DNA from: a virus
Taxonomy: Duplodnaviria; Caudoviricetes
Length of the DNA stretch: 64,000 bases
Reading direction: 5' to 3' (one strand)
IMG/VR virus record: IMGVR_UViG_3300021387_000075
This document shows, piece by piece, positions 4,113 through 36,651 of the stretch. A model generated the notes under the pieces. It was not told the DNA's origin, ran no database searches, and was given only the letters and a program-made list of their open reading frames with translations. The position numbers were made by a program, and so were the translations under genes. Each line of letters begins with the position of its first letter. Position 1 is the stretch's first letter.

Positions 4113-4714
4113 TTGTCCTCAACTCCGTAAATATGATCTAGCAGCCCCAGTTCAACACATTCGGGCGCCTTTAAGAACCACTGCTTGCGCGCATGGGCAT
4201 CATAATTTTCCGGAGTTATTTTTGTATTAGCAATAATAAAGTCACGAATATCTGCATCTACACCTTTATTAAATTCCATAATGTCATCAGCAGTACGAGC
4301 TTCACTAGAATCAAGCGCTACATATCCATCATGGAGTAGAACATAGGAAGCAGGGAAACCATATCGAATTACATTTTCATTTTTTCCGCCACCAGCAAGG
4401 ATAATACCAGCCATACTTGCGGCCATACCAGGAACAATAATATTTAAAGGTTTGGAATACATAGAAATGTATTGAGCGAGGTAGAAGCCATTCGTTACGC
4501 TACCTCCCGCAGAATTCAGAATCAATGTTACCGGCTCGGTAGAACTATCATGTTCAAACTCGCGCATCGGTAAAAAGACCTTTTCAATTGTTTCATCACA
4601 TACATAATCATTTAGAATAATAGTACGTTTATTAAACAGCTGATGAAAATATTGGTAAGTAATAGGATCAAACCCGTATTTTTCTACTTCGCTAAATAGT
4701 TCTTCTAAATCCAT
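4109..4714 (-). CDS. clpP: ClpP-like protease
   Basis: LNSAGGSV, GMAASMAG and LLHDG motifs. Confidence 0.85.
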   Translation of the reverse strand: MDLEELFSEVEKYGFDPITYQYFHQLFNKRTIILNDYVCDETIEKVFLPMREFEHDSSTEPVTLILNSAGGSVTNGFYLAQYISMYSKPLNIIVPGMAASMAGIILAGGGKNENVIRYGFPASYVLLHDGYVALDSSEARTADDIMEFNKGVDADIRDFIIANTKITPENYDAHARKQWFLKAPECVELGLLDHIYGVEDK

Positions 4715-12323: not shown

Positions 12324-13553
12324 TTATCCATGATATTTCAGCAAGAAGTTGTTGCTTACTGCCTTGAAGGATCGAGTACCATCGAGAGAACGGAATACAA
12401 TTCCTTCACGCGGCTTTCCATCTTTTACTGAGTTGCCATCTGCATAAGCAAGAATGGCATCAACATCTGCAAACTGGTTAATTTTCATAGACTCTTCGAT
12501 TACCGGCACGCAGGGAATACCTTTGGGTTCGAGGTATGCTTTCATTTCCATAGTGCCATAACGACCGTGACTAGAAGTAATAAGGTTAAATGCGGCAAAG
12601 TCATGACCTTCAAGAGAGTAATCACGCTTCTGGATACTGGCGCCATAAGTTTCACCCTGAATAGTTACCCATTCATCTTTCGGGAAAGTATAGGTCAGCA
12701 AGTAATCAAGAATTTTATACATGTCATACTTCTTAGCCATTTCCCAATATACATTGGTATCATAATAGCAAGGCTTAGTTTCTTCACCAAAGCATACATT
12801 GCGCGAGCATACGTAGAAGTTCTTCTTGCCGAACTTACCGCGCTTCATAGTGAAAGTAGTGCTCGTACCATCAATCTTCTCGGTCGCAATCCAATCATCG
12901 GGATCGTTCAGAATCCAAGGCATATTCTGAATACGCTCTTCATCAGTCTTGGAAACCCAGCTCGGCCATCCGTTCTTTTTATCTTTTTTCTTTCCGAAGA
13001 AGAAGAACATAACCTTACGACCCCATTCACGACGCATCATCCAACGCGCCCAAGGCTTTTTAAACAGAGAAGCATGACGCTGGGTCATTTTCTTATACTT
13101 ATCTACCGGTGCGGCCTTACGAGCATTATCCTCATCATCGGCATAAGTTACTCCCAGTTTCTTAGTCAGAAAGCGGGATTCATCAGTTACATAATGAGGT
13201 TTGCCTTCGTCATCAACAATTACTGAATGATCATCCATAGCACTATTTTCAGTAGTCCAACCAAAATCAGACGGATGCATAAGCAAACCCTGAGAAATAG
13301 TTTTGCACATCTTTAAAGTCTTAACTTTGTAGTTGCGCTTTTCAAGGAAGGCAAAACACTCCTTGTCAGAAGGCACGCGCGAATCAATTTCAAAATAAAT
13401 AGCGGGATCGCCGACCTTAAACTGATCTTTCTGTACAATTACGCGCCAACCACCAACGATAGCGTGTTCTACACGGTCATAGCCAGGAATTGGTTCAATT
13501 CCATCAATCAGAACCACATAGGCAAGTTCGCGCTCGGAATTTTTATTCAGCAT
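12324..13553 (-). CDS. RNA ligase, Rnl2/DRB0094-like, with N-terminal OB domain
   Basis: IEPIPGYDRVE N-terminus; TEKIDG, QGE, FNL, REGIV, FKAVS. Confidence 0.88.
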   Translation of the reverse strand: MLNKNSERELAYVVLIDGIEPIPGYDRVEHAIVGGWRVIVQKDQFKVGDPAIYFEIDSRVPSDKECFAFLEKRNYKVKTLKMCKTISQGLLMHPSDFGWTTENSAMDDHSVIVDDEGKPHYVTDESRFLTKKLGVTYADDEDNARKAAPVDKYKKMTQRHASLFKKPWARWMMRREWGRKVMFFFFGKKKDKKNGWPSWVSKTDEERIQNMPWILNDPDDWIATEKIDGTSTTFTMKRGKFGKKNFYVCSRNVCFGEETKPCYYDTNVYWEMAKKYDMYKILDYLLTYTFPKDEWVTIQGETYGASIQKRDYSLEGHDFAAFNLITSSHGRYGTMEMKAYLEPKGIPCVPVIEESMKINQFADVDAILAYADGNSVKDGKPREGIVFRSLDGTRSFKAVSNNFLLKYHG

Positions 13554-18061: not shown

Positions 18062-19549
18062 TTATAGGATGCTATGAATTACTTCATATCTATCACTATT
18101 TAACTTCTCAAGGCACAAATCCCAACCATCCTTGCCGCTAAGGATACATTCAATCATGTTGGGCGAGAAGCCACTAACATAAGAGAATCCGGGGCCAATA
18201 GCGGGAATGTTGTTATTGCGCGCATTAAGATTCCAAAAGATTACACGAGGTAATACATAACCATGATTGCGCCACTTACGAGCCTGCGCTTCGATTACCG
18301 TCTCAACGTCACGCCGCGAATGGAGGCTAGGACCAGTCCATCTATCGACAGTAGTAGATCCGGTAGTAAATGCCTGATCAAACTCCATATCACTGAAGAT
18401 ATAAAGAGTACGCGGCATATCCTGTCCGCTAACATGGTTCTTAATTGCGGTACGCAGCATCAAATCGAAAGCGGCTTCGATATTAGTCGTGCCGCCCCAA
18501 TCAGCTTCACGAGCGCGATTAAACTTATCGTACAGATCAATACCTCCAAACTCAACCAACGCAGGGCTGTTGCTAAAGGTAATGAAATGATTATGGAAGG
18601 GCCCTTTACCACGCTCGGCGACATAGGCTCCCAGAGAAACTGCGGCCTCCATAGGAGTTCCATTCATACTACCGCTGACATCAACAATGGCAATTCCGGG
18701 TTCTTCTTTGCCATGGTAGTAATCAGGCAGATTTTCCCAATACTTATCCCAAACCTGGCGCTCAGCCTTACTTGGCCTCCAATTGTTAAAAATCTGATGC
18801 GCGATATCAACAGGGTTAAGCGTGGCCGCATTAACCTTAGTCTGCTTGCTAGCCATAAACTGAGCATAACGATCGCGGGTTTCCTCACGACGGATAAAGG
18901 CGCCCTTATACATTAGGCCAGCCTTAGATGGCAGATGCTCAAAGGCAATCTGGTCCCATTCATTCTGGCTCATAAGAGTTTCAACCAGATGGCAATCCTT
19001 TCGTCCCTCTGAGAGCATCTTACGATACGCGCGAGGAGACATATGGAAAGCTTCACGAGTCTTGCGCGCGAAACGCTTAGACTCAGCGGAAGAACAGTTT
19101 TCACTCTTCAACCACTTATATACCAGATGATCCTGGCTGTACTGAATTATCTTATACAGATAATCAAACATATCCTGTTCGCAAGGAGTATTCTCCAAGA
19201 CAAACAGGTCATCATAGCGCCCATACATAGCAACGAAAGGAATCAGATGAGTCGCTTCCAAGCTATATTCCTGCGCCAACCACTTATAGCATACGCGGAA
19301 AAAGCGACGCTCACCCTGTCCGCCACGGCAATCGCGCAGATAAAATAGGCACTTCAGGGCGAGAGTAGCATCTTCCTGATATGCCTTCTTGAACATAAGG
19401 ATAACATCTTCGTCAGAGCGATTACGCATAGAACCGCCCATAGCAAACATATCCAGTACCGCATTAAGGGTAGAGTTATGCTTAACACCGCCCTTTTCGG
19501 TATAGCCATAATTAGTATCGTTCTTCATTGCCTTTAAAAATTCGTTCAT
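18062..19549 (-). CDS. DUF2828-type TROVE/Ro60-like protein with vWA domain
   Basis: FYLRDCRGGQGER, YGRYDDL, MIDAS DVSGSM, WGGTTN, FSDMEFD, IFWNL, SGFS. Confidence 0.85.
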   Translation of the reverse strand: MNEFLKAMKNDTNYGYTEKGGVKHNSTLNAVLDMFAMGGSMRNRSDEDVILMFKKAYQEDATLALKCLFYLRDCRGGQGERRFFRVCYKWLAQEYSLEATHLIPFVAMYGRYDDLFVLENTPCEQDMFDYLYKIIQYSQDHLVYKWLKSENCSSAESKRFARKTREAFHMSPRAYRKMLSEGRKDCHLVETLMSQNEWDQIAFEHLPSKAGLMYKGAFIRREETRDRYAQFMASKQTKVNAATLNPVDIAHQIFNNWRPSKAERQVWDKYWENLPDYYHGKEEPGIAIVDVSGSMNGTPMEAAVSLGAYVAERGKGPFHNHFITFSNSPALVEFGGIDLYDKFNRAREADWGGTTNIEAAFDLMLRTAIKNHVSGQDMPRTLYIFSDMEFDQAFTTGSTTVDRWTGPSLHSRRDVETVIEAQARKWRNHGYVLPRVIFWNLNARNNNIPAIGPGFSYVSGFSPNMIECILSGKDGWDLCLEKLNSDRYEVIHSIL

Positions 19550-19676
19550 TTTCTTTCTCCTTTTCATCTTGACCGTTGTCACGGTTGTAGGTTTTACGGT
19601 AGCCGCATGTTTCTATACACTTAGAACAAGGACTACCAATTAAACATTTCTTATCTTCTAACATAATTATTATAAC

Positions 19677-20255
19677 TCAATTTTGGAAAGAAGTCAAGTA
19701 TTTTTCCAAAAACTCATATTTGATTTGCTCTAAATTTACAGGATAGCAATCATGTGCGTCCATTTCTACATGATAGCATTTCTTATCCCAATCAGCCCAC
19801 CGGTCTTGTGTATGTGAGTGCCCGCATAGATTCGCTACTTTGCGCCAAGCTTCGTTATTAGTTGTAAGCGTGGGATAATGTGAAAGATAAAAACTCCACT
19901 TACCACTTTTAATTATAGTAGCATAAGAATTACGAGGCGAACCAAGCAGCTGGATATTAGGGCACTGAGGTAAGATTTTCTCAATCTTTCCTAGGGTATC
20001 GTGATTTCCAAGTATCCATATCTGATTGCCTTTAAGGCGCTGAAGATAAGGAATTGCCGCATCAACATCGCTAAGAGAAATATCTCCTAAATTATATACC
20101 CAGTCTTCATCCTTTACAACTGAATTCCACCGTTCTACAATAGTCTCACACATTTCTTCGGTAGAAGTAAAACCGCGCGGCTCAAAGAGAAAGGGCTTAT
20201 TGTGCATCAGGTGTAAATCACTAGTAAGCCAAATTTCACTCATTAGTACCTCCAT
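19677..20255 (-). CDS. Calcineurin-like metallophosphoesterase
   Basis: SDLHLMH, LGD, GNHD, SHYP, GHSH. Confidence 0.88.
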   Translation of the reverse strand: MEVLMSEIWLTSDLHLMHNKPFLFEPRGFTSTEEMCETIVERWNSVVKDEDWVYNLGDISLSDVDAAIPYLQRLKGNQIWILGNHDTLGKIEKILPQCPNIQLLGSPRNSYATIIKSGKWSFYLSHYPTLTTNNEAWRKVANLCGHSHTQDRWADWDKKCYHVEMDAHDCYPVNLEQIKYEFLEKYLTSFQN

Positions 20256-20772
20256 ATTGATACGGCCAATTTAAGTAAGAATAATTGTTAGGGTCGCCCT
20301 CCCCTACATCAATGATTTGAATCGCGCGAGGATCTTCATCTAATGTAGGAATAACGTAACTACGGAACATACCAGAAATAACATCAATACCGACTTGCGC
20401 TAAACCCTCACGTCCCATATCATTTAATACGCACTGGTCAAAAGTAGTATGAAATACCACATAGATAATTTCGTAATCTTTGTAATAAGTATCAATGGCC
20501 TGAGTCAAACGCTTGCGCGAAGCCTTGGTTAGATGTGTAGCATCAGCAATTACATCAAATCCATCAACGAGGGTTGCGCGCAAAGTGCCGGTAAATTGCC
20601 GATATACTTCGGTTTCATGCGCGAAATAATCATCATCTTCTTCTAACATAGAGAAACGAATTTCGTCCCGAGATACATAACGAATGTCATCTTCGGTATT
20701 ATTTAAAAAATTATGCGCCCAAGTGCTTTTTCCGCATCCGCTCGGGCCACAAAGAATATAAAGTTTAGGCAT
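20236..20772 (-). CDS. Polynucleotide kinase-like (AAA_33)
   Basis: CGPSGCGKST, VSRDEIR, ADATHL. Confidence 0.82.
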   Translation of the reverse strand: MPKLYILCGPSGCGKSTWAHNFLNNTEDDIRYVSRDEIRFSMLEEDDDYFAHETEVYRQFTGTLRATLVDGFDVIADATHLTKASRKRLTQAIDTYYKDYEIIYVVFHTTFDQCVLNDMGREGLAQVGIDVISGMFRSYVIPTLDEDPRAIQIIDVGEGDPNNYSYLNWPYQYGGTNE

Positions 20773-21187
20773 TTTTCTCCTCCCATAATAAGCAAGTGTG
20801 GTTATCGGGCAGTGGCCCGCCATATTCACACTCATGATATGTATTATATTTATCTGACATATCGAGACAACGCTTACATGCGAAACAGTCTCGATTTTCT
20901 TTCCACTCTTTTTGTTGATGTTTTAGTATATCATCATAATTTTTATTAAAAAGATCACGAAGTAAATTCAATTCTTTATCTCCTTCGGAAGTTCTCCAGT
21001 AGTCATAAAGATATAAGAATTAAGAATGTTAATACTGTCTGTATGTACCGGAATATTTATTGGAAAGCCAGTATGCTCGTCATACCCATGAATAAAAGCG
21101 TCATACTTATCATACTCAACATTATTTTCCATTCTTACATCCCCTTCCTTTCATAAAAATTATACTATAATTTTTAAAAAAAGTCAA

Positions 21188-23765: not shown

Positions 23766-24064
23766 ATTCTTCTTTATGATACTTGTATTCCTCTGGAAGA
23801 ATTACTTGAAGGAATTGTCTAAAATATTTTGCCATATCTTCAGTAGATTTGAAACCAACAATTGTTTGTGGTTCATATGCACATTTATATAACACCATAT
23901 CCATTATTCTTAAACAATTATAAACTTCTTTTAACTTATCTTCCATAATACCTCCAATAAATAAAACGCCGCGGAAGAGTTGCAGATACTACTCTGCCTC
24001 TTACAACAGGAACAATCCAACGCGGCAAATCTATTAGCGCCGAAGCGCGAATATTTAATTAAAC

Positions 24065-24160
24065 TAGGCCATTGTGATTTGAAGGACTTGAACCTTCTCA
24101 AAAATTTTATGAAAGCAAATTTTCTTTAACCTATTTTTGAAATTATGCTGTAATGGCCTA
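24065..24160 (-). ncRNA. ACAGC-bulge stem RNA containing a T-arm
   Basis: TAGGCCATT/AATGGCCTA terminal stem, ACAGCA, GAAGG-TTCAAGT-CCTTC. Confidence 0.6.
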
Positions 24161-24165
24161 TAAAC

Positions 24166-24279
24166 TAGACAGTATTAGTACGCCGCTCTACCAATTGAGC
24201 TATCTTCCTAAAGGAAAAAATGGACTCGAACCATTAACACGCGGATCCTCAGTCAAGAAAATAAGGCTGTAACTGTCTA
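24166..24279 (-). ncRNA. Circularly permuted tRNA mimic (Y RNA/YrlA-like architecture)
   Basis: Terminal stem TAGACAGT/ACTGTCTA enclosing T-arm, loop-closed acceptor stem, then D-arm. Confidence 0.75.
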
Positions 24280-24283
24280 TAAG

Positions 24284-24357
24284 TCCGAGTAGCGAGATTT
24301 GAACTCACGACTTCCTGCTCCCGAAGCAGGCGCTCTACCAAGCTGAGCTACACCCGG
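24284..24357 (-). tRNA. tRNA-Pro(CGG)
   Basis: Cloverleaf, loop TTCGGGA. Confidence 0.93.
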
Positions 24358-24949
24358 AAATGCGGCTTTCGCCGCGAACGAAAGGAGATGATTCACAAAT
24401 GTTTTGCAAGCTCAATTCTGTTGCCTCTTATATCTACTCTTATCTCTCTTTCTGTAATTATTATATCATAAATTTTCTTCATTGTCAAGCATTTGATCTT
24501 TCATTTCTTCAAGTTTGCGCCTATCGGAAATTGTATTTTCACCATGTTTAGATAGTCCTCGGCACAAAGGGCATGAGCAATAGATAGCGTTTTTTGAATA
24601 TTGATGAAGGTTATCATACCATCCTTCAGGCCAACGATAAACTTCTTCTACAATTTTACGCTTACGAATAGCTTTCTTCCAATCATTATGACGTTTCTCT
24701 GCGGTATTACGCATAGGCATCACTCCCATGGATATTTATTTATTTTTACTGGTATATCATTATACCACTTTTTACGCGCTCCGCAATTGGGACAATAGCG
24801 ATATAAAAGATTGATTTCTTGCTTCAGATTAAAGCCTTGTTTATTGCGCGAACAAGCATAATCAAAGCCACATGAGCAATGAGCGTACCATGCTATATCA
24901 CCTAAGTATTTTCTTATTTCCCAATGATGATCAATACTCCGGCCCTTCC

Positions 24950-25258
24950 TCATGGCGCCTCCATAAATATAACTGGCTTTCCGTGCTTATACGCGTAAGC
25001 AATTTCACTTTTAGTGCTTTCACCAATATATCCATTCTTATTGATTATAAAAATTTCATCAGCCATATCAATTTTACGCTTGTGGATATCATCGAGCATT
25101 ATTTTTTGTTCTTCGGTAAAAACATCCCCACTATGGCCAAAGCACCCTACGCTAAGTACAATATTACCAGCAAGAGTAAGTTCTTTATTAACACGTTCAA
25201 AATCCTCCTTGAAACGAGTACTTCCGCATAGCGTTATTACATGATAGTTACCAATCAT
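24950..25258 (-). CDS. Small deoxyribosyltransferase-like/DUF4406-like protein
   Basis: ITLCGSTRF, HKRKIDMAD, GYIGESTKSEI. Confidence 0.65.
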   Translation of the reverse strand: MIGNYHVITLCGSTRFKEDFERVNKELTLAGNIVLSVGCFGHSGDVFTEEQKIMLDDIHKRKIDMADEIFIINKNGYIGESTKSEIAYAYKHGKPVIFMEAP

Positions 25259-25561
25259 TCACCCACCGCCTTAGAAATAAAATCATGAAGATACATAAGA
25301 AAATCTTCATCTTCCACATAAAAAGGATCATTACCATGCTCGTTTTTATATGCTAAACAAGCATTCACCATTAGCTGGCTCAGGCGCCAATCAGGAACCA
25401 TTCCCCAAATTGTAGCAAGCGCATCGCAATAAGGTTTAATTCGATTTGGATTTCTCATGTATATCCTCCAATTATCAAAATAATGCGGTTTCCCGGGTAT
25501 CCTTGTAAGAGCACATTACCGCAAAGAGCTATCTTACCTTTCTTATCCCTATGCTTAAAAG

Positions 25562-25632
25562 CAGGGGAACTAGGATTCGAACCTAGACCACAAATTTTGG
25601 AGATTCGGATGCTGCCGTTACACCATTCCCCT
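25562..25632 (-). tRNA. tRNA-Trp(CCA)
   Basis: Cloverleaf, loop CTCCAAA. Confidence 0.93.
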
Positions 25633-25733
25633 ACGTGCACCATTTTCTCATAACGTTATAAACGGTGCCAAACTTGTCCGGATAGGAATGACGGTCATGA
25701 CTCCGTCTTACTGGCCCCTATCAGCCAGCATCG

Positions 25734-25806
25734 TGCGCCATCGGAGACTCGAACTCCGCACGCCAGCATTAAAAGTGCTGTGCTCTACCAGATGAGCTAA
25801 TGGCGC
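25734..25806 (-). tRNA. tRNA-Lys(TTT)
   Basis: Cloverleaf, loop CTTTTAA. Confidence 0.95.
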
Positions 25807-25810
25807 ATAT

Positions 25811-25885
25811 TGGTGCCTAGGGGTGGAATCGGACCACCGCATGGGAGATTTTCAGTCTCCAGCCTTTCCATTTGGCTACCCAGGC
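25811..25885 (-). tRNA. tRNA-Phe(GAA)
   Basis: Loop CTGAAAA; encoded CCA; variant T-loop TCCGATT. Confidence 0.9.
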
Positions 25886-26108
25886 ACGAAGAGCGGACGC
25901 ATCCGCTCAACGAAGGCTTAGGCCGAAGCCAACCGCCGCAATTCATTTTTGTATAATTCTATAAGTATATGTTGGCATATGATAGTCTTTCGACCATTTA
26001 CCTTTACCGAAGTAGAATCGAAAATAATCATTATGTTCTTCTACTCCTTCAATTTCATATTGGCTACTCATCTCAACCCAATGATTTGTTAATTCAACTA
26101 TCATTAAA

Positions 26109-26726
26109 TTACGGCCATTCTCCCAATGGGAAACCAAGTCCTGCGCGCTCTACATTCGTGTTGAAAAATACACCTGCTGTTGCGGGGCCAGTTAAAAGCT
26201 CGCTGGCAATAGTTTCATAAAGGGTGCTAATAATGCCGTGGCAATCGTTTAGATTATCCGCAGCAAACTGTACTACACAGTTATTAAATACAACATAAGT
26301 AGTACCAATCCATTGGTAGCCTTCTTCGGCTGGGCACTTGGAATATGCGTAAGCCGGATTCTTCGAGAAAGCCGTATCAAATAGCTCAACCTTACTTGTG
26401 AAAGCACGGTTACTGGGCTTACCATCAACAATTACCTTTAGTGTCACATTGCCAAACTTAATTTCTTCAGGTAGAATTTGTAGAAGAGCAGCAACCTTAT
26501 CCCCGTTGTTACAAGCTAGAACAACGCAAGGATGGGAGCCAGAAAAGTCAGTATTAAAAGCAATCTGTGGATCACCATCAAATAGAGCTTCTAGCTTTCT
26601 GATTACAATTGTCCAGGGTGGTAGAATCTTTAGTCTCGGTTCATTCATATTATAGGTACCTCCAAAATGAATTATATGCGCTTTTCGCGCAAAGTCTCCA
26701 GCCGACGATTTGAACGCCGATTTCAT
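26109..26726 (-). CDS. Hypothetical phage protein (true start probably MNEPRLK, ~26648)
   Basis: ORF track; GGAGG RBS before the internal Met. Confidence 0.7.
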   Translation of the reverse strand: MKSAFKSSAGDFARKAHIIHFGGTYNMNEPRLKILPPWTIVIRKLEALFDGDPQIAFNTDFSGSHPCVVLACNNGDKVAALLQILPEEIKFGNVTLKVIVDGKPSNRAFTSKVELFDTAFSKNPAYAYSKCPAEEGYQWIGTTYVVFNNCVVQFAADNLNDCHGIISTLYETIASELLTGPATAGVFFNTNVERAGLGFPLGEWP

Positions 26727-26766
26727 GGTCCGTAGCCATGTGTTCTCTCCCTTAGACTAGCCGGAG
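26695..26766 (-). tRNA. tRNA-Arg(ACG)
   Basis: Cloverleaf, loop CTACGGA. Confidence 0.85.
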
Positions 26767-26885
26767 ATAGTGTGCTACCTTTATGGGCCGTGGTCCGCAT
26801 GCAAAGCCTAAGCGTGTGCCCTCTCGCAGTAGTAGCACGGGATGCGTCAAATCCATCCACTGGGTTGTCAGCTGAACAACAATCG

Positions 26886-26959
26886 TACCTCCCATGAGAT
26901 TTGAACTCATACTGTATACGTTCTTAGCGTATTATCTCTGCCAGTTGGATTAGAGAGGC
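26886..26959 (-). tRNA. tRNA-Leu(AAG), short variable arm
   Basis: ATACG-CTAAGAA-CGTAT anticodon arm; A73. Confidence 0.8.
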
Positions 26960-27131
26960 ATAGATACTTTGTTAGGCTCTGCAGCGCCTATCTAACAGGC
27001 TTCAAAGTATAATTGCCTGGCCCTTTCATCATCGGTGCAAATGCTCACGCTTGTTTATTATAGTCCCTGCATTGTGAGGCCCCAAGACTTTCCATTTTGC
27101 CGATTGAATACGGTAAGCGCATGGATACGCT

Positions 27132-27217
27132 TGGTGCGCCGGGGTGGAGTCGAACCACCGATGTTTCTTCGTCGTGGATTTACAGTCCACTGTCTTCGCC
27201 ACTGGACATACCGACGC
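27132..27217 (-). tRNA. tRNA-Tyr(GTA)
   Basis: Loop CTGTAAA, long variable arm, encoded CCA. Confidence 0.93.
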
Positions 27218-27727
27218 ATAATACGCGGTCTAAGGTGCCGCAAACCCTATCCTTGAACCGCAGGAACTCAGGATAGATTAGTTCCATATAATATCAAGCA
27301 GAGCAGACATAATCTGTTTCATATATTGCTATTGTTCCTACAGCTCAATGGTTACTTGATTTTTACCAACCACTCGCATCCCACCGCCCTGTTCTACTCG
27401 GTTAGAGGTCACTGTCACGTTATTCACGAACTTCCTCATCGCCTAAGTAGTCATGCGCCAAAGCCTTGTCCGTTGGTATATTAAAATGTTTTAATTTCAA
27501 GTTCTTCTGCTTTAACATAAGGCCGTTCATCCGGGCCCTTACTGTAATCCATCCACCAATAACTATGAGATTCAATCTGTGATTTCTTCAATTCAACATA
27601 TGCTGCAATGTTATTTGTGTTTACATATTCTCTTTCTATACGCCAATTTCTACATTCACAATCAGTATACCGTTCAATAAAAACCACATAAATCTTTTTC
27701 ATAATTTTTTCCTTTCAGAATTTTTAA

Positions 27728-27802
27728 TGGAGCCTCCAGACGGATTCGAACCGCCATAAGCGCCTTACGAAGACGCCGTACTTGCCGTTGTACGATGGAG
27801 GC
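27728..27802 (-). tRNA. tRNA-Thr(CGT)
   Basis: Loop TTCGTAA, encoded CCA. Confidence 0.92.
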
Positions 27803-28017
27803 ATAGTTGAGAGGGAAAGGCGCGATGGTGTTCCGCGCTAGCCGTTTATTGTCATTTCTAAGTCCTCGTCAGGACTTAAGTCCTCGTCAGGATTTTCCTT
27901 CCCTCTTAACATAATTATTATAACAAAATTTTTATTAAAAGTCAAATATTAATTTAATAAGCATTTGAAAATGGATATACTATAAGCATAAAGAATATCA
28001 GTAATCCAATTATAAAT

Positions 28018-28416
28018 TTAAATTTCATGTTTTACCTCTTCTCTAAAAAAGTAAAGTAAGTAAGTATCTGGTTCTAAGCCAGTAAAGTCTACAACAATGC
28101 CTAAATCTTCAGTAATTTCAGCGTCATATAAATATAAGTCATTGTTAATTAGTGCAGACTTGATATGATCATCTGGATGAATTTCAACTGGAATATACCA
28201 AGTAACTTTTTCATAAGGCTTATCTACAATTACCTATACAGCTTCAATTAGTTCGTAACATTCTAAGTCGAAGTCAAATAGTGCTGGATCACATTCTTCA
28301 AACTACATTTCAGGGTCGCATGTAATTAAAGACTTGGTAGATACAGACGGCGCGGCCGCGGCGAATAAGGGAAACGTAAGTAATAAACATAATATAAGTA
28401 AAATAAGTTTTTTCAT
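28018..28416 (-). CDS. Predicted secreted protein (signal peptide), TAG-recoded
   Basis: MKKLILLILCLLLTFPLFAAAAPS...; at least 2 in-frame TAG; TAA stop. Confidence 0.7.
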
Positions 28417-28417
28417 T

Positions 28418-28834
28418 TTAACTCTCCTATGATAAATAAAATGTCACCTAAGACATTAATTTTTTACTAAAGTAAACAATTTCTAAAACATCTGTATTTG
28501 TTGTGAATATTTTAGGTAAAAACTAATAGTGCATATTTACCTATGTATAGTATTCTACATAATTTAATCCAATTTTACAGAAAAAATAAAATCTAATCCA
28601 TGCTTGTTCTGTAATATTGTATGAAGTAATACTCCATAATTTAGCGCATACTTTATCAATAAATTGAATTGCTCTTGGCATATCCTTCCTAGAATAATTA
28701 CTGTCATAAAGTAAATTACCAATTAGTATTATAGAATTAGTGGATTCTGTATTTAAGTATAACGATAAATCTTCAGTAGAAAAATTAGAGCACCTTTTAA
28801 ACGCGAATAATAAATGTAAATAAGCAGTATTCAT
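28418..28834 (-). CDS. Hypothetical protein in rSAM operon (4 TAG)
   Basis: ORF 28541..28834 extends through TAGs to TAA; ATGA overlap with the upstream gene. Confidence 0.65.
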
Positions 28835-29340
28835 GCGCGCTACGTTAAGGAATTAAGATCTGGTATAATTTCTATATTATCAAGTTGATCTAATAACTAC
28901 TGAATTTCATTTACACGTTCTGAATGATATAAAATTAAAGTTTGCGTATAATAATACTTTAATATTTTCTATAATTCTATTACTTCTATTTTTTGAACTT
29001 CAGCGCTAATAATAGAATTGAGTAAGTTAAGAGTTGTAGTATCCGATTCATTAACTGGTTGTAAGCGCTATACGATATATGCACTAATTATGTTTTGCTC
29101 TGCTTCTGTATAGTAAGAATTATATAGTGCCTAAATAATATTAGATACATATGAATAATTATCACTAAATGAAGCTGTATAGGCTGAAGAAGCACATCTT
29201 TCTATAGCCGCTAGCACGATTCCAATTGGATATTCAAATCTGCTTAAAGCAGTATCAAAAGATGTAAAATCATTAATATTAAATGGTTCCCTATTTTGAA
29301 ATAGTTTTAAAAGTTTTAATTCTATAGTTAAACTAGACAT
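28831..29340 (-). CDS. Hypothetical protein in rSAM operon (5 TAG)
   Basis: ORF 29131..29340 extends through TAGs to TGA; AGGAGG RBS. Confidence 0.7.
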
Positions 29341-29351
29341 GTTTTTCCTCC

Positions 29352-29891
29352 TTATTTATGTCCTGGTACTGAAGAAGCTTCATTACTACAGCTACCATGA
29401 GCAGTTGTACAAACATCTGCACAAGTTTTAGAACATGCTGCTCCACATGTCCCAGCACAGCCGCCCGAACAACTACTACAACTGCCTTTACATTTACCCG
29501 TACATGAGCTTTCGCAGCCACCTTTACATCCGCTTTTACACCCGCCACTACATGAATTATAGCATAAACCACGGCAGCTACTACCTGTACAGTCAGTACT
29601 AGCAGAGGTTGCCGGCGTGTCCTCATAATTTGCTAAAGCAATATTGGCAGCGGAAATATCTTTAATAGCATTTGACTAAATACCAGTAGCCTTAATTAAA
29701 TTAATAAAACCTACTGTTTCATTAAAATGAGTTAATCTGGCAAGTTCGTTTCTATTAGCTGAATTTGTAAAATTAGTAGCATAAGATGCGAGGCTATCTT
29801 TGAATTTTCTTCTTGACATTTCAGCTTTTACTCGATTTTTAAAAGCAATAATATCATTAGATAATATTGCAGATCCCTATTGTAAGCCCAT
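29352..29891 (-). CDS. Cys-rich CxxxC-repeat protein, putative radical-SAM substrate (179 aa, 2 TAG)
   Basis: C-terminus DCTGSSCRGLCYNSCSGGCKSGCKGGCESSCTGKCKGSCSSCSGGCAGTCGAACSKTCADVCTTAHGSC with 17 Cys; missing from the ORF track. Confidence 0.85.
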
Positions 29892-29902
29892 TAAAATCAC
29901 CC

Positions 29903-31165
29903 TTATTTTGCTAATTGCATTAATAATTTTAATTCATTTTCAGGAATAATCTGTAATGCAATTTCTTTATTTAATAATACGGGAATACGTTTATTAATAT
30001 TATTTTGTATATACATTTTATTCCAATAATAACTACTAATTAATACACCTGCTCGGTAAATCCAGCAGATATTAGTATTTCGTATATTGACGGCTCCTTC
30101 TGATTTATAATTCCATCCAGCGCACATGGGGCACATACCGTGAATATTACAGTTTGAACATTGATTATTTTGCATTGTTAAATTTATGTTATATTTTTTT
30201 AACCATTCAGAAGTTGGTGAGATACCATTAATATTACCTATTGAAATAGGATTATTTAATGAACTATTCATAAAACGCAAGCAAGGATACGCAATTCCAC
30301 TGGGATCAAAAGAAATGGTCTAACCAAAAGCGCCACAAGTAATATTATCTTGATGATAATCATAAATTTGATCTAAGTTTTCATAAAATAAACTAGTATA
30401 GATACTTGGATTTTTAAGTAAAGAATCAGCAATTGATTTTAATTCAAAATAATACTATGTTGCTTCCTACTATGTCCATTTATGTTCAAATATTGGTCCG
30501 CCAATTATTACCTTACAGCCTATATCGGTAAAGAATTTATAGATTTCATGTAAATATAATAAATTATCTGGAGTAACAGTAATTTTAGTATTTGGATACC
30601 CTTTAGTTTTACTCCAATAATCTTTAAACGCCGCAATTGCCATATCAAAACTACCATATCCTTTTTTATCTTTTCTACAGGCATCATGCATTATTTTTGG
30701 CCCATCAATAGTAATACTTAATTTTACAAAATCTTCAAACTCTTTAAGATATTTCTATACTTGTTTAGTAAAATATAATGTACCATTAGTAGATAAAGAA
30801 AAGCTAAAATTAGTTAGCCAGGGATGCTATTGTTTTATACACTAATCAATAAAATACCAACTTCCATAATAAATAGTGTCAATATTCATTAAGGTTTCGC
30901 CGCCGATGAACTCCAATGTAACTCCTTTGGTGTGCTAATTAATAATAGTATTTTTCTAGTTTTCTTTATACTAATTAAATAATAAATCAATACACGATTG
31001 CATTATACTTTTTGTCATAGATTCATTGCCTTTATTTGTCTAATAACAATATGAACAATTTAAATTGCATTTATTAGTGACCTAAAAAGTAATACGACGA
31101 TAATTTGCATCTGGATCATCATCTAAATACGGTAACAATGAAATATAATCTATTGGAGAATCCAT
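29903..31165 (-). CDS. Radical SAM/SPASM peptide maturase, CXXX-repeat-target type (copy 1, TAG-rich)
   Basis: ITF[Q]VTNKCNLNCSYCY[Q], FIGGE, STNG, ITIDG, YPCLRF, CSNC...CPMCAGWNY. Confidence 0.9.
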
Positions 31166-31431
31166 TATTCACACTCCACAGTTTGATTAAAAAAATTTAC
31201 TTTACATTTACGCCATTCTGTTTCTGGACAATATTTCTAATTCAAAAGCCTTTTAGCAGTATCTAGTTCAATTTTGTACATAATTGCATTACTAAAATTT
31301 TCTTGTATAAATTCATCATCTTTATTTATTCCATGTTTTAATAAATATTTAAGAATATGTAAATGAGCTTCATATATTTTTAGCAATGCTTCAATTTCAT
31401 CCGATTCATCGCGTGTAATATTAATAGTCAT
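31165..31431 (-). CDS. CXXX-repeat modification system partner protein (copy 1)
   Basis: MTINITRDESDEIEAL...; resembles 36644..36931; TAATG overlap with the rSAM gene; one TAG. Confidence 0.7.
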
Positions 31432-31527
31432 ATTATTCTCCTATTAAAAATAGCCCCATACGGGGCAAATTCAGCAGTAGGTTGCTAGCCCCACATACGT
31501 TTATACACTTATTTGGTATCGTGTAAG

Positions 31528-31611
31528 TGCCCGAGGCCGGACTTGAACCGGCACGCTCAAAAGAGCAACAGATTTTAAGTCTGTGGTGTCTGCCTATTCC
31601 ACCACTCGGGC
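31528..31611 (-). tRNA. tRNA-Leu(TAA)
   Basis: Loop CTTAAAA, long variable arm. Confidence 0.95.
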
Positions 31612-32105
31612 ATAAAATACAGGATTTGTTTGTCATGCGTCCATGAGCCAGCTTAGTATTAAGCGAAATAACTGTTCATCGCTCCTGTATTGTTAATGAC
31701 GTAAAACCCCAAACTAGTCATTATCGCGTCTAGCTAGACCGCATGTTTTCTGTCTTGAACGAGCAAGCGCGTGACAAGGATTACAATCTTATTTAGGGAA
31801 CTTCCCAGAGTCAAGAGAAACTCATCTACAGCGCGAGAGGCGTACTAAGATCTTGTCTTAGTGGGTTGCGCTTCGGTGTAGGGGGTGGACCAAAGGGCAT
31901 TTCACCCAGCCCAAACGGCAGTTTTCAGTCATGCTGGACATTCTATAATAGCAGATGCAACTAGTATTCAGCACCATTTCTCGATGCTGGCATCTCCTAA
32001 TAGAAAGCACGTACTCATTAAGCACATGCCTAGTCCGTTTTATATGATAGAATACCCCGCGGAGCAGGCTCCAAGTGGTACAACGGCTCATACTATCAAA
32101 AATAC

Positions 32106-32170
32106 TAGGCACATTAAACTAGACTTTTTAACAGAAAGTTGTTCGTATAAAAGTTTGCTGTTTGCGCCTA
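32106..32170 (-). ncRNA. ACAGC-bulge stem RNA
   Basis: TAGGCGCA-AACAGCAA...TGTGCCTA. Confidence 0.55.
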
Positions 32171-32349
32171 ATTCGCACTTTACTTCGCTTCTTTCTATAC
32201 CGTTTTCCGCTATGCCACATATCACTACTGACCTGCCCGCTTGTTCGCTCAAGCGTACTTATATGCACTGCGGCGGCAGGTTTCGTGCCAGTGGTAGTTT
32301 AAGTGCTAAATCCGTGTTAACGGTTTCCACCAACTAACGAGTGGAGATG

Positions 32350-32423
32350 TACCCAATGGGAGATTTGAACTCCGCGTCTGCACCTTGAAAGGGTGCTGTG
32401 CTAACCTACTACACCAATCGGGC
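32350..32423 (-). tRNA. tRNA-Glu(TTC)
   Basis: Loop CTTTCAA. Confidence 0.88.
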
Positions 32424-32475
32424 ATTTGGCGCTTTCGCGCCATACATACTAAGAGGTATGTTGTTATGATCAGAG

Positions 32476-32547
32476 CGACCTTACGCAGAATTGAACTGCG
32501 GTTTTAGGTGTGATAAGCCTACGTAATTACCACTATACGATAAGGCC
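32476..32547 (-). tRNA. tRNA-Asp-like with ATC anticodon
   Basis: Asp-type body (G73, C38), loop TTATCAC. Confidence 0.8.
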
Positions 32548-32718
32548 AGATGGCGTTTTCGCGCCAATAGATATGCTGCAAACAAGGTATGGAAATGGTT
32601 CAAAGGGTTAAATGTTTCTATTGCTGGCATATCAATAGGCACGTTTTATAGTGCGGTGCCCAAGCACTGACACTCTTTCACAAAATGCTACAGAAGTGAA
32701 AGGAATGTTTATGTAGCG

Positions 32719-32791
32719 CGGCTCCTGTAGGGCTCGAACCTACGACACTTCGGTTAACAGCCGAATGCTCTGCCAACTGAGCTAAGGAGCC
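32719..32791 (-). tRNA. tRNA-Asn(GTT)
   Basis: Loop CTGTTAA. Confidence 0.95.
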
Positions 32792-32870
32792 ATATGAAGT
32801 GAGTATTACGGCCCTCACTTACGGCTTCTAACACACTTATGATGGCTCAGGTGGAATACCCTAAGCCGAG

Positions 32871-32943
32871 TTGCACAGACAAGAATCGAACTTGCATTTG
32901 TTGGGTATGAGCCAACTGTCCTAAGCCTTTAGACGACCGTGCG
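32871..32943 (-). tRNA. tRNA-Met(CAT), initiator-like C1:A72 mismatch
   Basis: Loop CTCATAC; only two of the three initiator G-C pairs in the anticodon stem. Confidence 0.85.
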
Positions 32944-33159
32944 ATATAAAGAGGTCAACTTGTCGCGACCAAGCTGACCGAGGTAATCTCAGCTACAGAA
33001 ACCTTATCATAAGCGCACCTTCTGCCGAGTCACCAATACGCGGCGACCCGCTGGACTTGAACCAGTTCTCTATGCATAGGCTGTCCCTCTTCTCAGATCG
33101 ACCCTGAGATACGGCCACAACTTCTTGTAAATACGTGCCAGTTGTCAGCACAATCGCGA

Positions 33160-33230
33160 TGCCCTCAGAGGATTCGAACCTTCATTTCCGCCACTGGCGT
33201 TGTTTTCTCCAACTTAAACTATCTTTGGGC
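33160..33230 (-). other. tRNA-like element with truncated anticodon arm
   Basis: D-arm and T-arm (GGTTCGAATCC) present; anticodon arm is CGCC-AGT-GGCG. Confidence 0.55.
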
Positions 33231-33743
33231 ATATTAGATAGACTATTGCGAACTTGCGGTCTATCAGCGCGGCACCTTTTTTACGTGGGTCGTGTATCCA
33301 CGGAGGTTGCTCGTCGCAACCCGCTTCTATGAGCGGCCTCACATTTATTTATACTCGTAAGCTCTACCGAGTGTTTTGGCCTACACATCGTGACGGGGGT
33401 AGTTGATGAAGCTACTTCCTTTTCAGTTTGGGGAGCGACCCCAAGAGCTGGCCGGGACTACCAATCCTTTTCCCTGCCCTCCCGTTTTTCAGCCAAGTTA
33501 CCAATTCATCGACTGGACTACTAATGTTTATACTCGGTGTCACCGAGTTCCATACGTATGTACCGTTTGCACTGCCTACATCTCGCTGCGTTGCGTAACG
33601 GGTGAAATCTTCCGCGACCTAGCCGGCACCTTTTGATGTTCTCGGACATCAGCGTGTGGGGAGTCTAGATATACCTTCTCACTGAACCGCTCGACTAAAT
33701 ATTTTACTTGTACTAGCGAGAGACAAGTCCCTAACAGGGAAAC

Positions 33744-33799
33744 TAGGCGCGATGCAATCTTCTGTTAATAAGCATTATAAATAGTGCTGTGTGCGCCTA
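33744..33799 (-). ncRNA. ACAGC-bulge stem RNA
   Basis: TAGGCGC-ACACAGCA...GCGCCTA. Confidence 0.55.
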
Positions 33800-33803
33800 A
33801 AAG

Positions 33804-33877
33804 TAGGGTATCAGAGGCTCGAACTCTGCATCTTTGGTTTATAAGACCACTGCACTAACCTACTGTGCTAATACCCA
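33804..33877 (-). tRNA. tRNA-Ile(TAT)
   Basis: Loop CTTATAA; A73. Confidence 0.85.
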
Positions 33878-34574
33878 TCACTCCTAATCTAATTCTTTTG
33901 GAAAATACTTAGCAAGTCCATCCGTAGAATATCCTACTGCACGTAAGAACATTACAAAGCTATCACAAACATCCTGAAGATGGACTCCATCAGCCTTAGA
34001 AGTACTAATTTCTACATCGGTATCAGCCATTTCCTTATTTTCATCCTCAAAAGTATACCAGAATCTAATTGTTTCCATCTCTTACTCCTTTATTATAACT
34101 CAATTTTGTTCTTTTGTCAAATAATCACTTTCCCAATCTTCAAGTGACCATTCTTCATCTTCAAGTTCTTCCCAAGAGAAATTCATAATGAAATCATCTA
34201 ACATTCTCATCTCTCCCTTCCTTATGTATATATTATAACAAAATTTTGAAAAAAAGTCAAATAAAAAATCCCGTAATTTTAATAAGTCTATTTGCGATAG
34301 CTCCTAAATTACGGGAGGTGCGCCCGCAGGTTCGCAACTCCTCGGGTGCGGACGAAGTGTCGTGTCGTCATACGTCCCATTAACTCGCAGAGAAATAGAG
34401 TGTACTGTTGACGGTGTACAAGTATCCGGCATTATATTCTTATATCGTTGGCCTACTGCCGGCTCGCAATCTGTCATCCTAGGCTGACTTATACGGGGTA
34501 ATGGCTCCCGGGTAGCATACGTGCTTGCCTGCGTCCTTACTTTTATCGCGATTAGGGAAGTAAGAGAACCTAAG

Positions 34575-34645
34575 AGCACCATGCGAGACTTGAACTCGCC
34601 GCATCTGCTTGGAAGGCAGACATATTACCGCTATACGAATGGTGC
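34575..34645 (-). tRNA. tRNA-Gly(TCC)
   Basis: Loop CTTCCAA; U73. Confidence 0.93.
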
Positions 34646-34651
34646 AAATAC

Positions 34652-34714
34652 TCGGCACACTGATAATTTCCTGTTATCTAAAATGGTGGAAAATATATTT
34701 GCTGTATGTGTCGA
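34652..34714 (-). ncRNA. ACAGC-bulge stem RNA
   Basis: TCGACACA-TACAGCAA...TGTGCCGA. Confidence 0.55.
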
Positions 34715-34799
34715 TAATTTTATTCCCTAAAGGAATAAAACTGGCTGGATGTTAGGCCATCCTTATCTCGTTTCAGTAGCTAACCGTCCGCTTCCCACG

Positions 34800-34887
34800 C
34801 TGCCCCTCTGGGACTCGAACCCAGATTACCCCTTCAGAGGGTATAACGGTTTTAGAGACCGGCGGTTTACCATTAGCCTAAGGGGCA
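34800..34887 (-). tRNA. Amber suppressor tRNA (anticodon CTA), probably Gln
   Basis: TGCCCCT/AGGGGCA acceptor (U1-A72, G73), loop CTCTAAA, long variable arm. Confidence 0.92.
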
Positions 34888-35265: not shown

Positions 35266-35361
35266 ACTTACTACCTCCCTATGTAGTAAAATTTTTTATT
35301 ACAAAGTAAGTTCCTTTCCTTACTCTGTATACATATATTATAGCAGAATTTTTAGAAAATG

Positions 35362-36651
35362 TCAAATACTTAATTGTAATAATTCATCATATTCTTCATC
35401 TGAAATAATTTGAGTGGCGATATTTCGCGGTAGATAAACTGGCATTCGTTTCTCACGATTATGCGCCCGATAATAGGTATTCCAATAATAGGTATTCGCA
35501 AGCATATTGGCGCGATGCATCCAACATATATTAGTACTGCGTTTATTGTAAGAGCCAGTTTCCTAGTAGTTCCACGCGCTACACCATGCACACCCTGCGG
35601 CGATAGGGCAATCTATACATTCTTGCGTAGATTGAGATTGTCGCGTAACCTTTTGCATATCATCATATATAGCTTTAGTTTCAGGAGTGTTATAAATACC
35701 ATCAGCATTTCCAATAATTATTGGCTCACGATCTGTGCCAAGGGAACTCGGCATATAACGTAAGCACGGATAAGCTTTTCCTTCTGGATCAAATGCTAAC
35801 ATAGCAGATGTGCCACCGCACCAATTCCAAGTATCAGTCGATAATAGAGGACGGCCACGATTCTCAGCAAATAATGAACTTTCTGCGCCTTCAGTTTGTA
35901 AAAGTCGTTCGGCTAAGCGAATTAGAATACAATAATATAATTGTGCTTCTTCAATTGTCCATTTATGCTCGAATACAGGATTGGCATGAATTGTTTTACA
36001 ACCTTTACTAAGAAAAAAATCAAATATGTCTTCCATTAACTCTAAGTTTTCGGGCGAAATAGTTACCTTAGTATCCAAAGGATTGGTTCCAATTGTATGA
36101 TACCAGTGTTCCCACGCAGCCATAGCTTTATCAAAACTACCATTACCATCATAATCTACACGGCATAAGTCATGTACTTTCTTAGGGCCATCAATAGTAA
36201 CATTCATGCTTAATAAATTTTTATACTTCTAAATAAAATGCTATACTTGCGGCTAAAAATAAAGAACACCATTAGTACTAATTGAAATACGAAAGTTTGT
36301 AAGCCAAATATGATCTTTCTCTAAGCATTGTTCAATAAAGTAATCGACAATATAATCCATTACTTCAACATTCATAAAAGGTTCGCCGCCAATGAAATCT
36401 AGAATAACACCGTATGTATGATGATTTATAACAGAGTTTTCTTTATTTTCATCATAAAGTTTAAATAATAAATCAACAATTCGTTTACCGGTTTCCTTAG
36501 ACATCATAGCATGACCTTTATGGCCCTGATAACAGTAAGAACATTTAAGACAGCAGTCATCGGTTACTTGAAAAGTAATATTGCGACATATAGCCTTGGG
36601 ATCTTCTTCTATATATCTATGAATTACTTCATCAGAATAATCTTTACTCAT
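35362..36651 (-). CDS. Radical SAM/SPASM peptide maturase, CXXX-repeat-target type (copy 2, 4 TAG)
   Basis: ITFQVTDDCCLKCSYCYQ, FIGGEPF, WCGG, YPCLRY, CIDCPIAAGCAWCSAWNY[Q]; ORFs join across TAGs; TGA stop. Confidence 0.92.

Follow-up and report, generated by a model that had tools for sequence, protein, structure and literature searches.

Ro60 and its Y RNAs form particles known as a classic system of RNA surveillance and as an autoantigen in humans, and the bacterial and phage versions of these particles are only starting to be understood. Here we describe a family of small RNA elements with a constant terminal handle in a stretch of 64,000 nucleotides from the IMG/VR virus record IMGVR_UViG_3300021387_000075 (Duplodnaviria; Caudoviricetes). 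This whole stretch is called the window below, and all positions are counted along it unless another contig is named. The elements lie in a tRNA island of a phage that also carries a gene of the DUF2828 family. In our opinion the most likely account, and a probable one, is that the RNAs and the DUF2828 protein make up a particle of the Ro60/Y-RNA type in which the protein family and the RNA handle are both different.

Several described systems come close to this locus. Y RNAs of the YrlA and YrlB types (Rfam RF02553) are found in bacteria and mycobacteriophages; the motif bound by Ro60, either GNCGAAN0-1G or GGUCCGA, is in the 5' strand of their terminal stem (Chen et al. 2014, PMC4201824). 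The Ro60 of Thermus phage phiLo has Yrl1 and Yrl2 encoded just upstream (PMC12135203; PDB 9KOP and 9L5Y), and a survey of jumbo phages mentions TROVE proteins with a tRNA-like partner. A phage Ro60 of the TROVE type with adjacent Y-like RNAs is therefore already published. The pairing of DUF2828 with handle RNAs was not found in print, and our literature search returned no paper linking DUF2828 to RNA, or ACAGCAA RNAs to phages or to Ro-like proteins.

The second point of comparison is eukaryotic. The Class I RNAs of dictyostelids (Rfam RF01414, Dicty_Class_I_RNA; Aspegren 2004; Kjellin et al. 2021, PMC7919456) are 42-65 nucleotides (nt) long. Their 6-bp terminal helix is followed by a box of 11 nt with ACAGCAA as its last bases; the interior varies, and the RNAs end in CUGU (PMC7919456). 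They have been searched for with the pattern GTTGRCCTTACAGCAA ... GTCAACTG (Mosig et al. 2006, PMC5054030). Their genes carry a DUSE promoter, they are reported to be unique to dictyostelids, and only the RRM protein Rnp1A/Cibp is known to bind them directly.

The handle RNAs of the window

Five elements on the minus strand of the window share a constant register: UAGRCNN (once UCGACAC), 2 nt, ACAGC (usually ACAGCAA), an interior, the complementary 7-mer and G-U. Copy 1 (24063-24160) has the helix UAGGCCA/UGGCCUA, the linker UU and the box ACAGCA. It comes 5 nt after copy 2 (24164-24279), which has the helix UAGACAG/CUGUCUA, the linker UU, the box ACAGCC and the G-U tail. The corresponding parts are UAGGCGC/GUGCCUA (with one G.U pair), AA and ACAGCAA in copy 3 (32104-32170), UAGGCGC/GCGCCUA, AC and ACAGCA in copy 4 (33742-33799), and UCGACAC/GUGCCGA, AU and ACAGCAA in copy 5 (34650-34714). 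These coordinates include the G-U tail; those of an earlier reading of the window, made by a model from the letters of the sequence (the original prediction), also match.

Three kinds of search recover these elements. The exact pattern TAGRCNNNNACAGC has four matches in the window, on the minus strand only and all in the tRNA island, against about 0.24 estimated by chance. A strict rule was set as NNGNCNN, NN and ACAGC, a fully complementary 7-mer within 15-134 nt, and then G. Over the 64 kb of the window it returns exactly copies 1-4; with one mismatch allowed, it adds copy 5 and nothing more on either strand. The covariance model R1, built from 63 copies of other phages with the window copies excluded, detects four of the five (E 2e-8 to 4e-4), namely copy 1 (E 4.4e-4), copy 3 (50 bits, E 1.9e-8), copy 4 (44.2 bits, E 3.3e-7) and copy 5 (31.5 bits, E 2e-4). 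It misses the 114-nt copy 2 solely because the insert is long, and this copy is found by both the exact pattern and the strict rule. Thus, the five copies that the original prediction had called clear are present on the minus strand where it had placed them, and its stem followed within a few bases by ACAGC is now fixed as a 7-bp helix, 2 nt and ACAGC. The ACAGC "bulge" that it had proposed is not established; ACAGCAA adjoins the helix and has no conserved pairing partner. A pairing of the CAG of the box with CUG or UUG before the T-arm, suggested by RNAalifold, was confined to the copy-1 class and showed no covariation; it was not adopted.

The interiors of the five copies differ. Copy 1 carries an AU-rich hairpin and a T-arm (GAAGG-UUCAAGU-CCUUC), and the alignment of its 12 orthologues contains compensatory changes at four helix pairs and two T-arm pairs. 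In copy 2 the cargo is a rearranged tRNA body, in the order T-arm, stem-loop, D-arm, and orthologues of the same type occur in contigs L141/L232 and L231. Copies 3-5 are 58-67 nt long, with short AU-rich interiors. The helix of copy 5 begins UCG/CGA, with a compensated C-G pair at position 2, and contains one A.C mismatch. In contig L141 (1808-1875) the orthologue of this copy is 91% identical and has the perfect helix UCGACAC/GUGUCGA, relative to which the mismatch is a single U-to-C change. No Rfam family covers the short copies at E<=10, and copy 3 had no match in an 86-nt search that included Dicty_Class_I_RNA. A search of INPHARED DNA with the region of copies 1 and 2, for near or distant relatives, gave matches to tRNA-Pro only.

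The original prediction had listed a weaker sixth copy at 32570-32633 (minus strand), and this one is not a member of the family. R1 gives no match to it at E<=10, and it has neither the 2-nt linker, nor the C at helix position 5, nor the G-U tail. The outer helix and tail are not kept in its orthologue (L141 3994-4060), in which UGCCAGCAA pairs with UUGUUGGCA (UUGUUUGCA in the window) and CCAGCAA is paired with UUGUUGG within a long hairpin. This conserved hairpin is placed between tRNA-Asn and tRNA-Asp. It is a separate hairpin that shares CAGCAA by chance and is unrelated to the handle family.

Many relatives of the five copies exist in other phages. Two pattern scans of IMG/VR fixed only TAGRC, ACAGC and GYCTAGT; the counts from them are among the matches listed, are biased toward the exact handle variants searched, and come from contigs that are often fragments. 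There were 197 distinct matches, and in 129 of them both unconstrained helix positions are paired, where about 28 would be expected by chance. Helix positions 4, 6 and 7 use several pair types in the IMG/VR matches, and at position 4 of those 129, G.U occurs 13 times and A.C 7 times. The helix was defined as 7 bp with a 2-nt linker after a filter on the N4 block (at least 3/4 pairs) had missed real members. A looser scan for any 7-bp stem near ACAGC was noisy (367 vs 162 matches across strands), and the strict rule was used instead.

The helix varies most clearly in the loci that were selected by their DUF2828 protein, as described below. Its first pair also covaries there: AAG...CUU is commoner than UAG...CUA, and GAG/CUC and ACG/CGU occur, a variation that the UCG/CGA of copy 5 fits. 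In 43 distinct copies from these loci, every cell is paired (100%), and in six of the seven pairs both bases vary. The covariation score of the 43 copies was reached by none of 500 shuffles, and pairing fell to 27-47% in controls in which the partner strand was slid by 1-3 columns. G-C and C-G pairs are conserved at helix positions 3 and 5. In addition, ACAGCAA is present in 307 of 349 members, though the search required ACAGC alone. As judged from the sequence, each of the five elements is a gene for a small non-coding RNA, and all belong to one widespread family; we infer that they are transcribed.

Coupling to the DUF2828 gene and the predicted fold of its product

The gene at 18062-19567 on the minus strand encodes a protein with a DUF2828 domain (PF11443, 2.3e-23) and a DUF7788 domain of the vWA/MIDAS type (PF25043, 2.5e-43), with weak matches to vWA models. 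Its start may be the ATG at 19567 or that at 19549, and the database form has 495 amino acids (aa).

The RNAs and this gene were found together in both directions of search. Starting from the RNA, a PF11443 protein is encoded on 47 of 48 handle-bearing IMG/VR contigs that are 64 kb or longer (among the matches listed; the set leaves out contig L002, which was fetched by its protein), compared with none of 18 IMG/VR contigs with chance matches (39-188 kb). Twelve contigs first placed among the controls proved to hold real handles missed by the early filter, and each has a DUF2828 gene near the match. Of the mapped copies, 73 of 75 are on the strand of the gene, and 55 are upstream; the median distance to the midpoint of the Pfam match is 1.6 kb. 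Starting from the protein, a profile of 43 homologues fetched 80 loci, 65 of them on contigs not seen before (1.2 Mb). In these 65 loci the strict rule finds 106 copies on the strand of the gene and none on the opposite strand, with at least one copy in 47 of the 65, and all 46 matches of R1 are likewise on the strand of the gene. In the species genomes of GTDB, one pattern scan was made, and its figures are among the 120 loci listed: a DUF2828 homologue occurs within about 8 kb in 37 of 57 loci with a valid stem vs 0 of 63 with an invalid stem (Fisher p ~1e-16), and 92 of 94 RNAs share the strand of the gene. Arrays reach six copies per locus, with different cargo.

The check that had been proposed with the original prediction, a covariance model of the copies together with their co-occurrence with DUF2828 genes, has thus been run: the model finds four of the five window copies and the genes co-occur. 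The link to DUF2828 that it had suspected holds in both directions and in three collections. Because the handle is nearly always accompanied by a DUF2828 gene, the RNAs are probably partners of the DUF2828 protein, and physical binding of the handle by the protein is what we infer from this co-occurrence and from the predicted fold.

The strand counts also bear on the nature of the copies. Terminal inverted repeats, a variable interior and dispersed copies look like a miniature mobile element, and the copies might be a feature of the DNA, such as the inverted-repeat ends of a small mobile element, a recombination site or a site bound by a protein on DNA. We find this hardly credible. Relative to the gene, the strands are divided 106:0, 46:0 and 92:2 in the counts above; G.U is tolerated more than A.C, and compensatory changes keep the pairing, not the sequence. 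An asymmetric ACAGCAA box, a G-U tail, tRNA-like folds and a fixed spacing to tRNAs speak against it as well. The pairing that is kept and the reading of one strand are therefore properties of an RNA, not of a DNA repeat, and the RNA-level reading of the original prediction is favoured by the strand asymmetry and the covarying helix alike.

An RNA near a gene and on its strand may also act on that gene alone. The copies could be cis-acting leaders or operators of the DUF2828 mRNA, bound by the protein or by another factor for autoregulation, with no particle in trans. The 55 of 75 copies that lie upstream, mostly on the same strand and at a median of 1.6 kb, would agree with this, as would gaps to an open frame that go down to 3-100 nt in prokaryotic loci. 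However, the window copies are 4.4-15 kb from the gene, with other genes, tRNAs and promoters between, and this dispersed arrangement is the most direct argument against a purely cis-acting leader. A leader would also leave unexplained the arrays of up to six copies with differing cargo, the tRNA-like bodies in about a quarter of the members, the 42% that adjoin tRNAs at processing-like distances, and the 20 of 75 copies downstream of the gene. We consider a cis-acting role of this kind decidedly unlikely.

The predicted structure of the DUF2828 protein points to Ro60. An AlphaFold2 model based on the 43 homologues (pLDDT 89.2, pTM 0.89) consists of helices over residues 30-272, followed by an alpha/beta domain. 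The 12 best PDB matches of the model are all full-length Ro60 proteins (E 3.7e-9 to 3.6e-6, TM-score 0.37-0.59, identity 12-15%), the best being 1yvr (E 3.7e-9, TM-score 0.59). They comprise Xenopus Ro in the apo form, bound to Y RNA (1yvp) and bound to misfolded RNA, human Ro60, the Ro60 of Thermus phage phiLo and Deinococcus Rsr. The MIDAS residues D290, S292, S294, T355 and D387 are invariant in the 43 homologues. The model has the helical-repeat ring and the C-terminal vWA domain with a MIDAS by which the Ro60 family is characterized, so that the DUF2828 protein appears Ro60-like in predicted fold and domain order, yet belongs to a separate sequence family. This family is very abundant: when the best 8,000 candidate homologues were scored, at least 7,102 had E<=1e-5. 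The look-alikes found in the ESM Atlas were all DUF2828 clusters of viral origin.

The neighbours of the gene may act on RNA. Directly upstream is a calcineurin-like phosphoesterase (19677-20255, minus; PF00149, 1.6e-7), and further upstream an AAA_33 P-loop kinase (20236-20835, minus; PF13671, 6.3e-17). An RNA ligase with an OB-fold and an RNA_ligase domain (12324-13553, minus; PF21189, 1.4e-21; PF09414, 2.8e-21) lies 4.5 kb downstream, and a second phosphoesterase is also downstream. Going by these family assignments, the combination of kinase, phosphoesterase and RNA ligase suggests a set for the healing and sealing of RNA ends.

Cargo, tRNA neighbours and the island

The interiors carried by the handle fall into a few classes. 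According to motif rules that are loose and give approximate counts, the cargo of 261 of the 349 distinct members is short and free of tRNA parts, while 56 members carry just a T-arm, 23 a T-arm and then a D-arm (the order of YrlA), and 8 a D-arm and then a T-arm. The constant handle with interchangeable interiors that the original prediction had described is borne out by these classes. In some members (L294 12406-12524, L026 4671-4788 and L254 8372-8493) there is a near-complete tRNA body with D-arm, anticodon arm and T-arm, in which the handle helix replaces the acceptor stem; in effect, these are tRNAs without a chargeable end.

Many copies adjoin tRNA genes. In the family, 145 of 348 copies are within 30 nt of a tRNA on the same strand, at tight preferred spacings: 68 begin no more than 10 nt after a tRNA and 96 end no more than 15 nt before one (mode 5-8 nt). 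Three such tRNAs in the window, all on the minus strand, were called by both ARAGORN and Rfam. The 3' end of tRNA-Pro (24283-24357) is 3 nt before copy 2, and that of tRNA-Ile (33803-33877) is 3 nt before copy 4. The 5' end of tRNA-Gly (34574-34645) follows the helix of copy 5 by 6 nt, and cleavage by RNase P would therefore set the 3' end of copy 5. The spacing in the family fits release by RNase P and RNase Z, and in this respect the idea that tRNA processing would free the RNAs has gained support from the sequence.

The same adjacency might suggest that the copies serve polycistronic tRNA transcripts as generic spacers or as processing signals, for example as hairpins guiding RNase P, Z, III or E, and have no dedicated protein partner. 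Three of the five window copies and the 145 of 348 family members beside tRNA genes are in keeping with this, but 58% of the members are not beside a tRNA. The ACAGCAA box is kept in 307 of 349 members, a spacer would not be expected to show a near-obligate, strand-specific link to DUF2828, and the tRNA-rich control contigs with chance matches do not have DUF2828. We regard this explanation as very improbable.

The cargo raises a further possibility, that the RNAs are decoys or spare parts in a conflict directed at tRNAs. They would serve as baits for host anticodon nucleases or tRNA-modifying defences, or as substrates of the healing and sealing enzymes of the phage. DUF2828 would then have just an accessory role, such as that of a chaperone or sensor, in place of that of a scaffold partner in the style of Y RNAs. 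About 25% of the members carry tRNA-like cargo, some of them full bodies with D-arm, anticodon arm and T-arm, and there are copies inside tRNA arrays with a kinase, phosphoesterases and an RNA ligase nearby. On the other hand, three quarters of the members have no tRNA part, the invariant handle is not tRNA-like, and the coupling that was found is to DUF2828. We think it unlikely that the RNAs are simply decoys or spare parts, and this possibility overlaps the reading of a Ro60/Y-RNA-type particle without excluding it.

Putative promoters are placed in front of the RNAs. A sigma-70-type promoter at 24460-24488 (minus; TTGACA, 17 nt, TG-TATAAT; 12/12 hexamer match) precedes tRNA-Pro, copy 2 and copy 1, and two more promoters with a perfect match to the sigma-70-type consensus are predicted at 34120-34092 and 35365-35337 (minus). 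Between copy 1 and the next open reading frame (ORF; start 23949) is a long hairpin at about 23968-24032 (minus), which is closed by GCCGCG...CGCGGCG, has a U run after it and is conserved in contig L001 at about 4840-4915. Its role could be that of a terminator for the tRNA-Pro/RNA unit or of a leader for the ORF.

The window is part of a large phage, and the database record of the DUF2828 protein is on a contig of 179,871 bp. TAG is read as an amino acid in this phage: long genes are broken under table 11 and joined when TAG is taken as Q, for example a frame of 1974 aa at 46071-51995 with 24 TAG codons. A tRNA with the anticodon CUA, labelled "Pyl" by ARAGORN, is at 34799-34887 (minus). Paralogous radical-SAM/4Fe-4S proteins at 29903-31165 and 35362-36651 (minus) become visible only with TAG readthrough (12 and 4 codons, respectively). 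Almost every long open frame is encoded on the minus strand, as are all 17 tRNAs. These tRNAs span 23.6-34.9 kb and are interleaved with ORF-free, GC-richer stretches and with two Rfam RNAs, both above threshold, cow-rumen-3 (31884-32030, minus; 120.9 bits) and cow-rumen-4 (35268-35330, minus; 64.6 bits). The latter follows the promoter at 35365-35337, which is a 12/12 match, and precedes a small ORF; it is present also in the related contig L141 (607-669).

Other parts of the island may hold further RNAs. Four ORF-free stretches (32950-33740, 34290-34570, 32175-32340 and 31620-31880, minus) have a GC content of about 0.5, compared with about 0.3 in nearby coding sequence, and none of them has an Rfam match at E<=10. 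The ORF-free GC-rich stretches are probably undescribed large structured RNAs. The related island of contig L022 has ROOL, GOLLD and drum RNAs in the equivalent place. Near 33170-33250 there are tRNA-like T-arm pieces that ARAGORN did not call. Two near-identical small GC hairpins, GGCGCGAAAGCGCC and GGCGCGAAAACGCC (about 32428-32441 and 32552-32565, minus), lie a few bases upstream of tRNA-Glu and tRNA-Asp, respectively, and may be processing or stability elements.

Comparison with Ro60/Y RNA particles and Class I RNAs

In a particle of the Ro60/Y-RNA type, the RNAs would be transcribed together with the phage tRNAs from host-type promoters. The enzymes of tRNA processing would cut their ends: RNase P where a tRNA follows, and RNase Z (or trimming) where one precedes. 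In the folded RNA, the two ends would form the 7-bp helix, with 2 nt and the ACAGCAA box on the 5' side and the G-U tail on the 3' side. This handle would be the docking site for the ring of the DUF2828-vWA protein, comparable to the contact of a Y RNA stem with Ro60. The variable interior, be it a simple hairpin, a T-arm by itself or a body resembling a tRNA, would be the working end, which might recruit enzymes or nucleases that recognise tRNA, or gate the access to the ring. A role in the quality control or repair of tRNA and other RNA during infection is suggested, because a kinase, a phosphoesterase and an RNA ligase are neighbours and the set of tRNAs is large.

Several observations weigh against such a particle. 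The original prediction had named the occurrence of the motif independently of DUF2828 or TROVE genes as a result that would speak against it. The motif is not independent in nearly all contigs (47 of 48); it is so in one, L092/G020, which is 96% complete and has two copies and no detectable DUF2828 homologue. This contig (IMGVR_UViG_3300045988_146775, 107 kb) carries its handle RNAs at 4367-4415 and 4454-4517 (minus), and their partner may be host-encoded or very divergent. No strict-rule copy is found within about 10 kb in 18 of the 65 protein-selected loci, and in the window the nearest copy is 4.4 kb from the DUF2828 gene, beyond the median of the family. With respect to the protein, TROVE (PF05731) has no match in it at E<=0.01, the profile of 43 homologues matches no PDB sequence at E<=1, and the TM-scores to Ro60 are moderate (0.52-0.59). 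The motif GNCGAA occurs within the first 25 nt in only 4 of the 349 members. Finally, a protein that processes or modifies the RNA, or one that is regulated by it, would agree with the co-occurrence too.

The likeness of this putative particle to Ro60 and Y RNAs has several sides. By predicted fold, the protein has a ring of helices with a vWA/MIDAS domain. The RNAs are about 55-120 nt long with paired ends, are encoded near the gene on the same strand and are often present in several copies, and RNA-repair genes are nearby. The kinase, phosphoesterase and ligase genes around the DUF2828 gene call to mind the rsr-yrlBA-rtcBA operon for RNA repair in Salmonella.

Some members, copy 2 alone in the window, share the YrlA order of T-arm, stem-loop and D-arm. 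The Rfam YrlA model (RF02553) gives copy 2 a score of 41.5 bits (E 1.8e-6 in 13 kb), below the 69-bit cut-off; the three hairpins align and the columns of the Ro-binding stem are mismatched. Its relatives in L121, L231 and L141 score 35-37 bits, also below threshold, and the YrlA model does not match the other four copies. Sub-threshold matches of 35-41 bits (E 2e-6 to 8e-4) recur among the members with tRNA-like cargo. CGAA at any place in the 349 members is rarer than in shuffles (66 vs 100). The RNAs are Y-RNA-like by analogy: neither the score nor the GNCGAA motif places them in YrlA, and the linked gene is DUF2828, outside Pfam TROVE, although the predicted fold of its product is Ro60-like.

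There are also differences. The protein belongs to Pfam DUF2828/DUF7788 and not to TROVE, with an identity to Ro60 of 12-15%. The handle is NNGRCNN, NN, ACAGCAA and a G-U tail, and not the bulged helix with GNCGAA or GGUCCGA. Unlike YrlA, most members have no tRNA-like part, and the window RNAs are spread through a tRNA island, not placed beside the gene. The RNAs of the Weinberg catalogue (cow-rumen-3, cow-rumen-4, ROOL, GOLLD and drum) occupy the same niche in phage tRNA islands, but they have no known coupling to DUF2828, and none of their Rfam models overlaps the five copies.

If the DUF2828 protein and the handle RNAs do act as a Ro60/Y-RNA-type particle, a second and very abundant protein family pairs with a modular RNA family of its own. 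The DUF2828/DUF7788 proteins gain a concrete candidate ligand, and many unannotated gaps in phage tRNA islands can be assigned to one RNA family. Since the handle is constant and the cargo is swappable, phages may routinely deploy programmable RNA adaptors in the conflict over tRNA and RNA repair.

The resemblance to the Class I RNAs of Dictyostelium may provide a lead on their function, a question open since 2004. Both families have a short helix between the 5' and 3' ends in which pairing is kept but not sequence. In both, the 5' arm of this helix leads into a conserved, mostly unpaired box with ACAGCAA at its end, the interior varies, and the 3' end has a short conserved tail, CUGU in Class I and G-U in the phage family. 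The lengths are similar as well, with 58-67 nt in copies 3-5 and 42-65 nt in Class I. The AAG...CUUG variant, dominant in the protein-selected phage loci, echoes the AAG start and CUGU end of Class I. In contrast, Class I RNAs have 6 bp and a 3-nt CUU spacer where the phage RNAs have 7 bp and 2 nt, a one-base difference in register, and the CCUU part of the 11-nt box is absent from the phage family. Class I genes are eukaryotic with DUSE, those of the phages have sigma-70-type promoters and tRNA flanks, and the known binder of Class I is not Ro-like. When RF01414 was run on five family-rich phage records, the best score was 15.4 bits (E 0.14; cut-off 41.5), and control genomes behaved alike. 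The resemblance is accordingly a lead and not a membership.

It is a tentative idea, to which we lend rather little confidence, that Ro-like proteins of the DUF2828 type use the helix with ACAGCAA as a docking signal that is ancient and shared across domains of life, and that the abundant Class I RNAs are the eukaryotic branch of the phage family described here. If this were true, the Class I RNAs would obtain a candidate protein partner and a function like that of Ro and Y RNAs, and a second lineage of Ro-type particles would stand parallel to that of TROVE and Y RNA.

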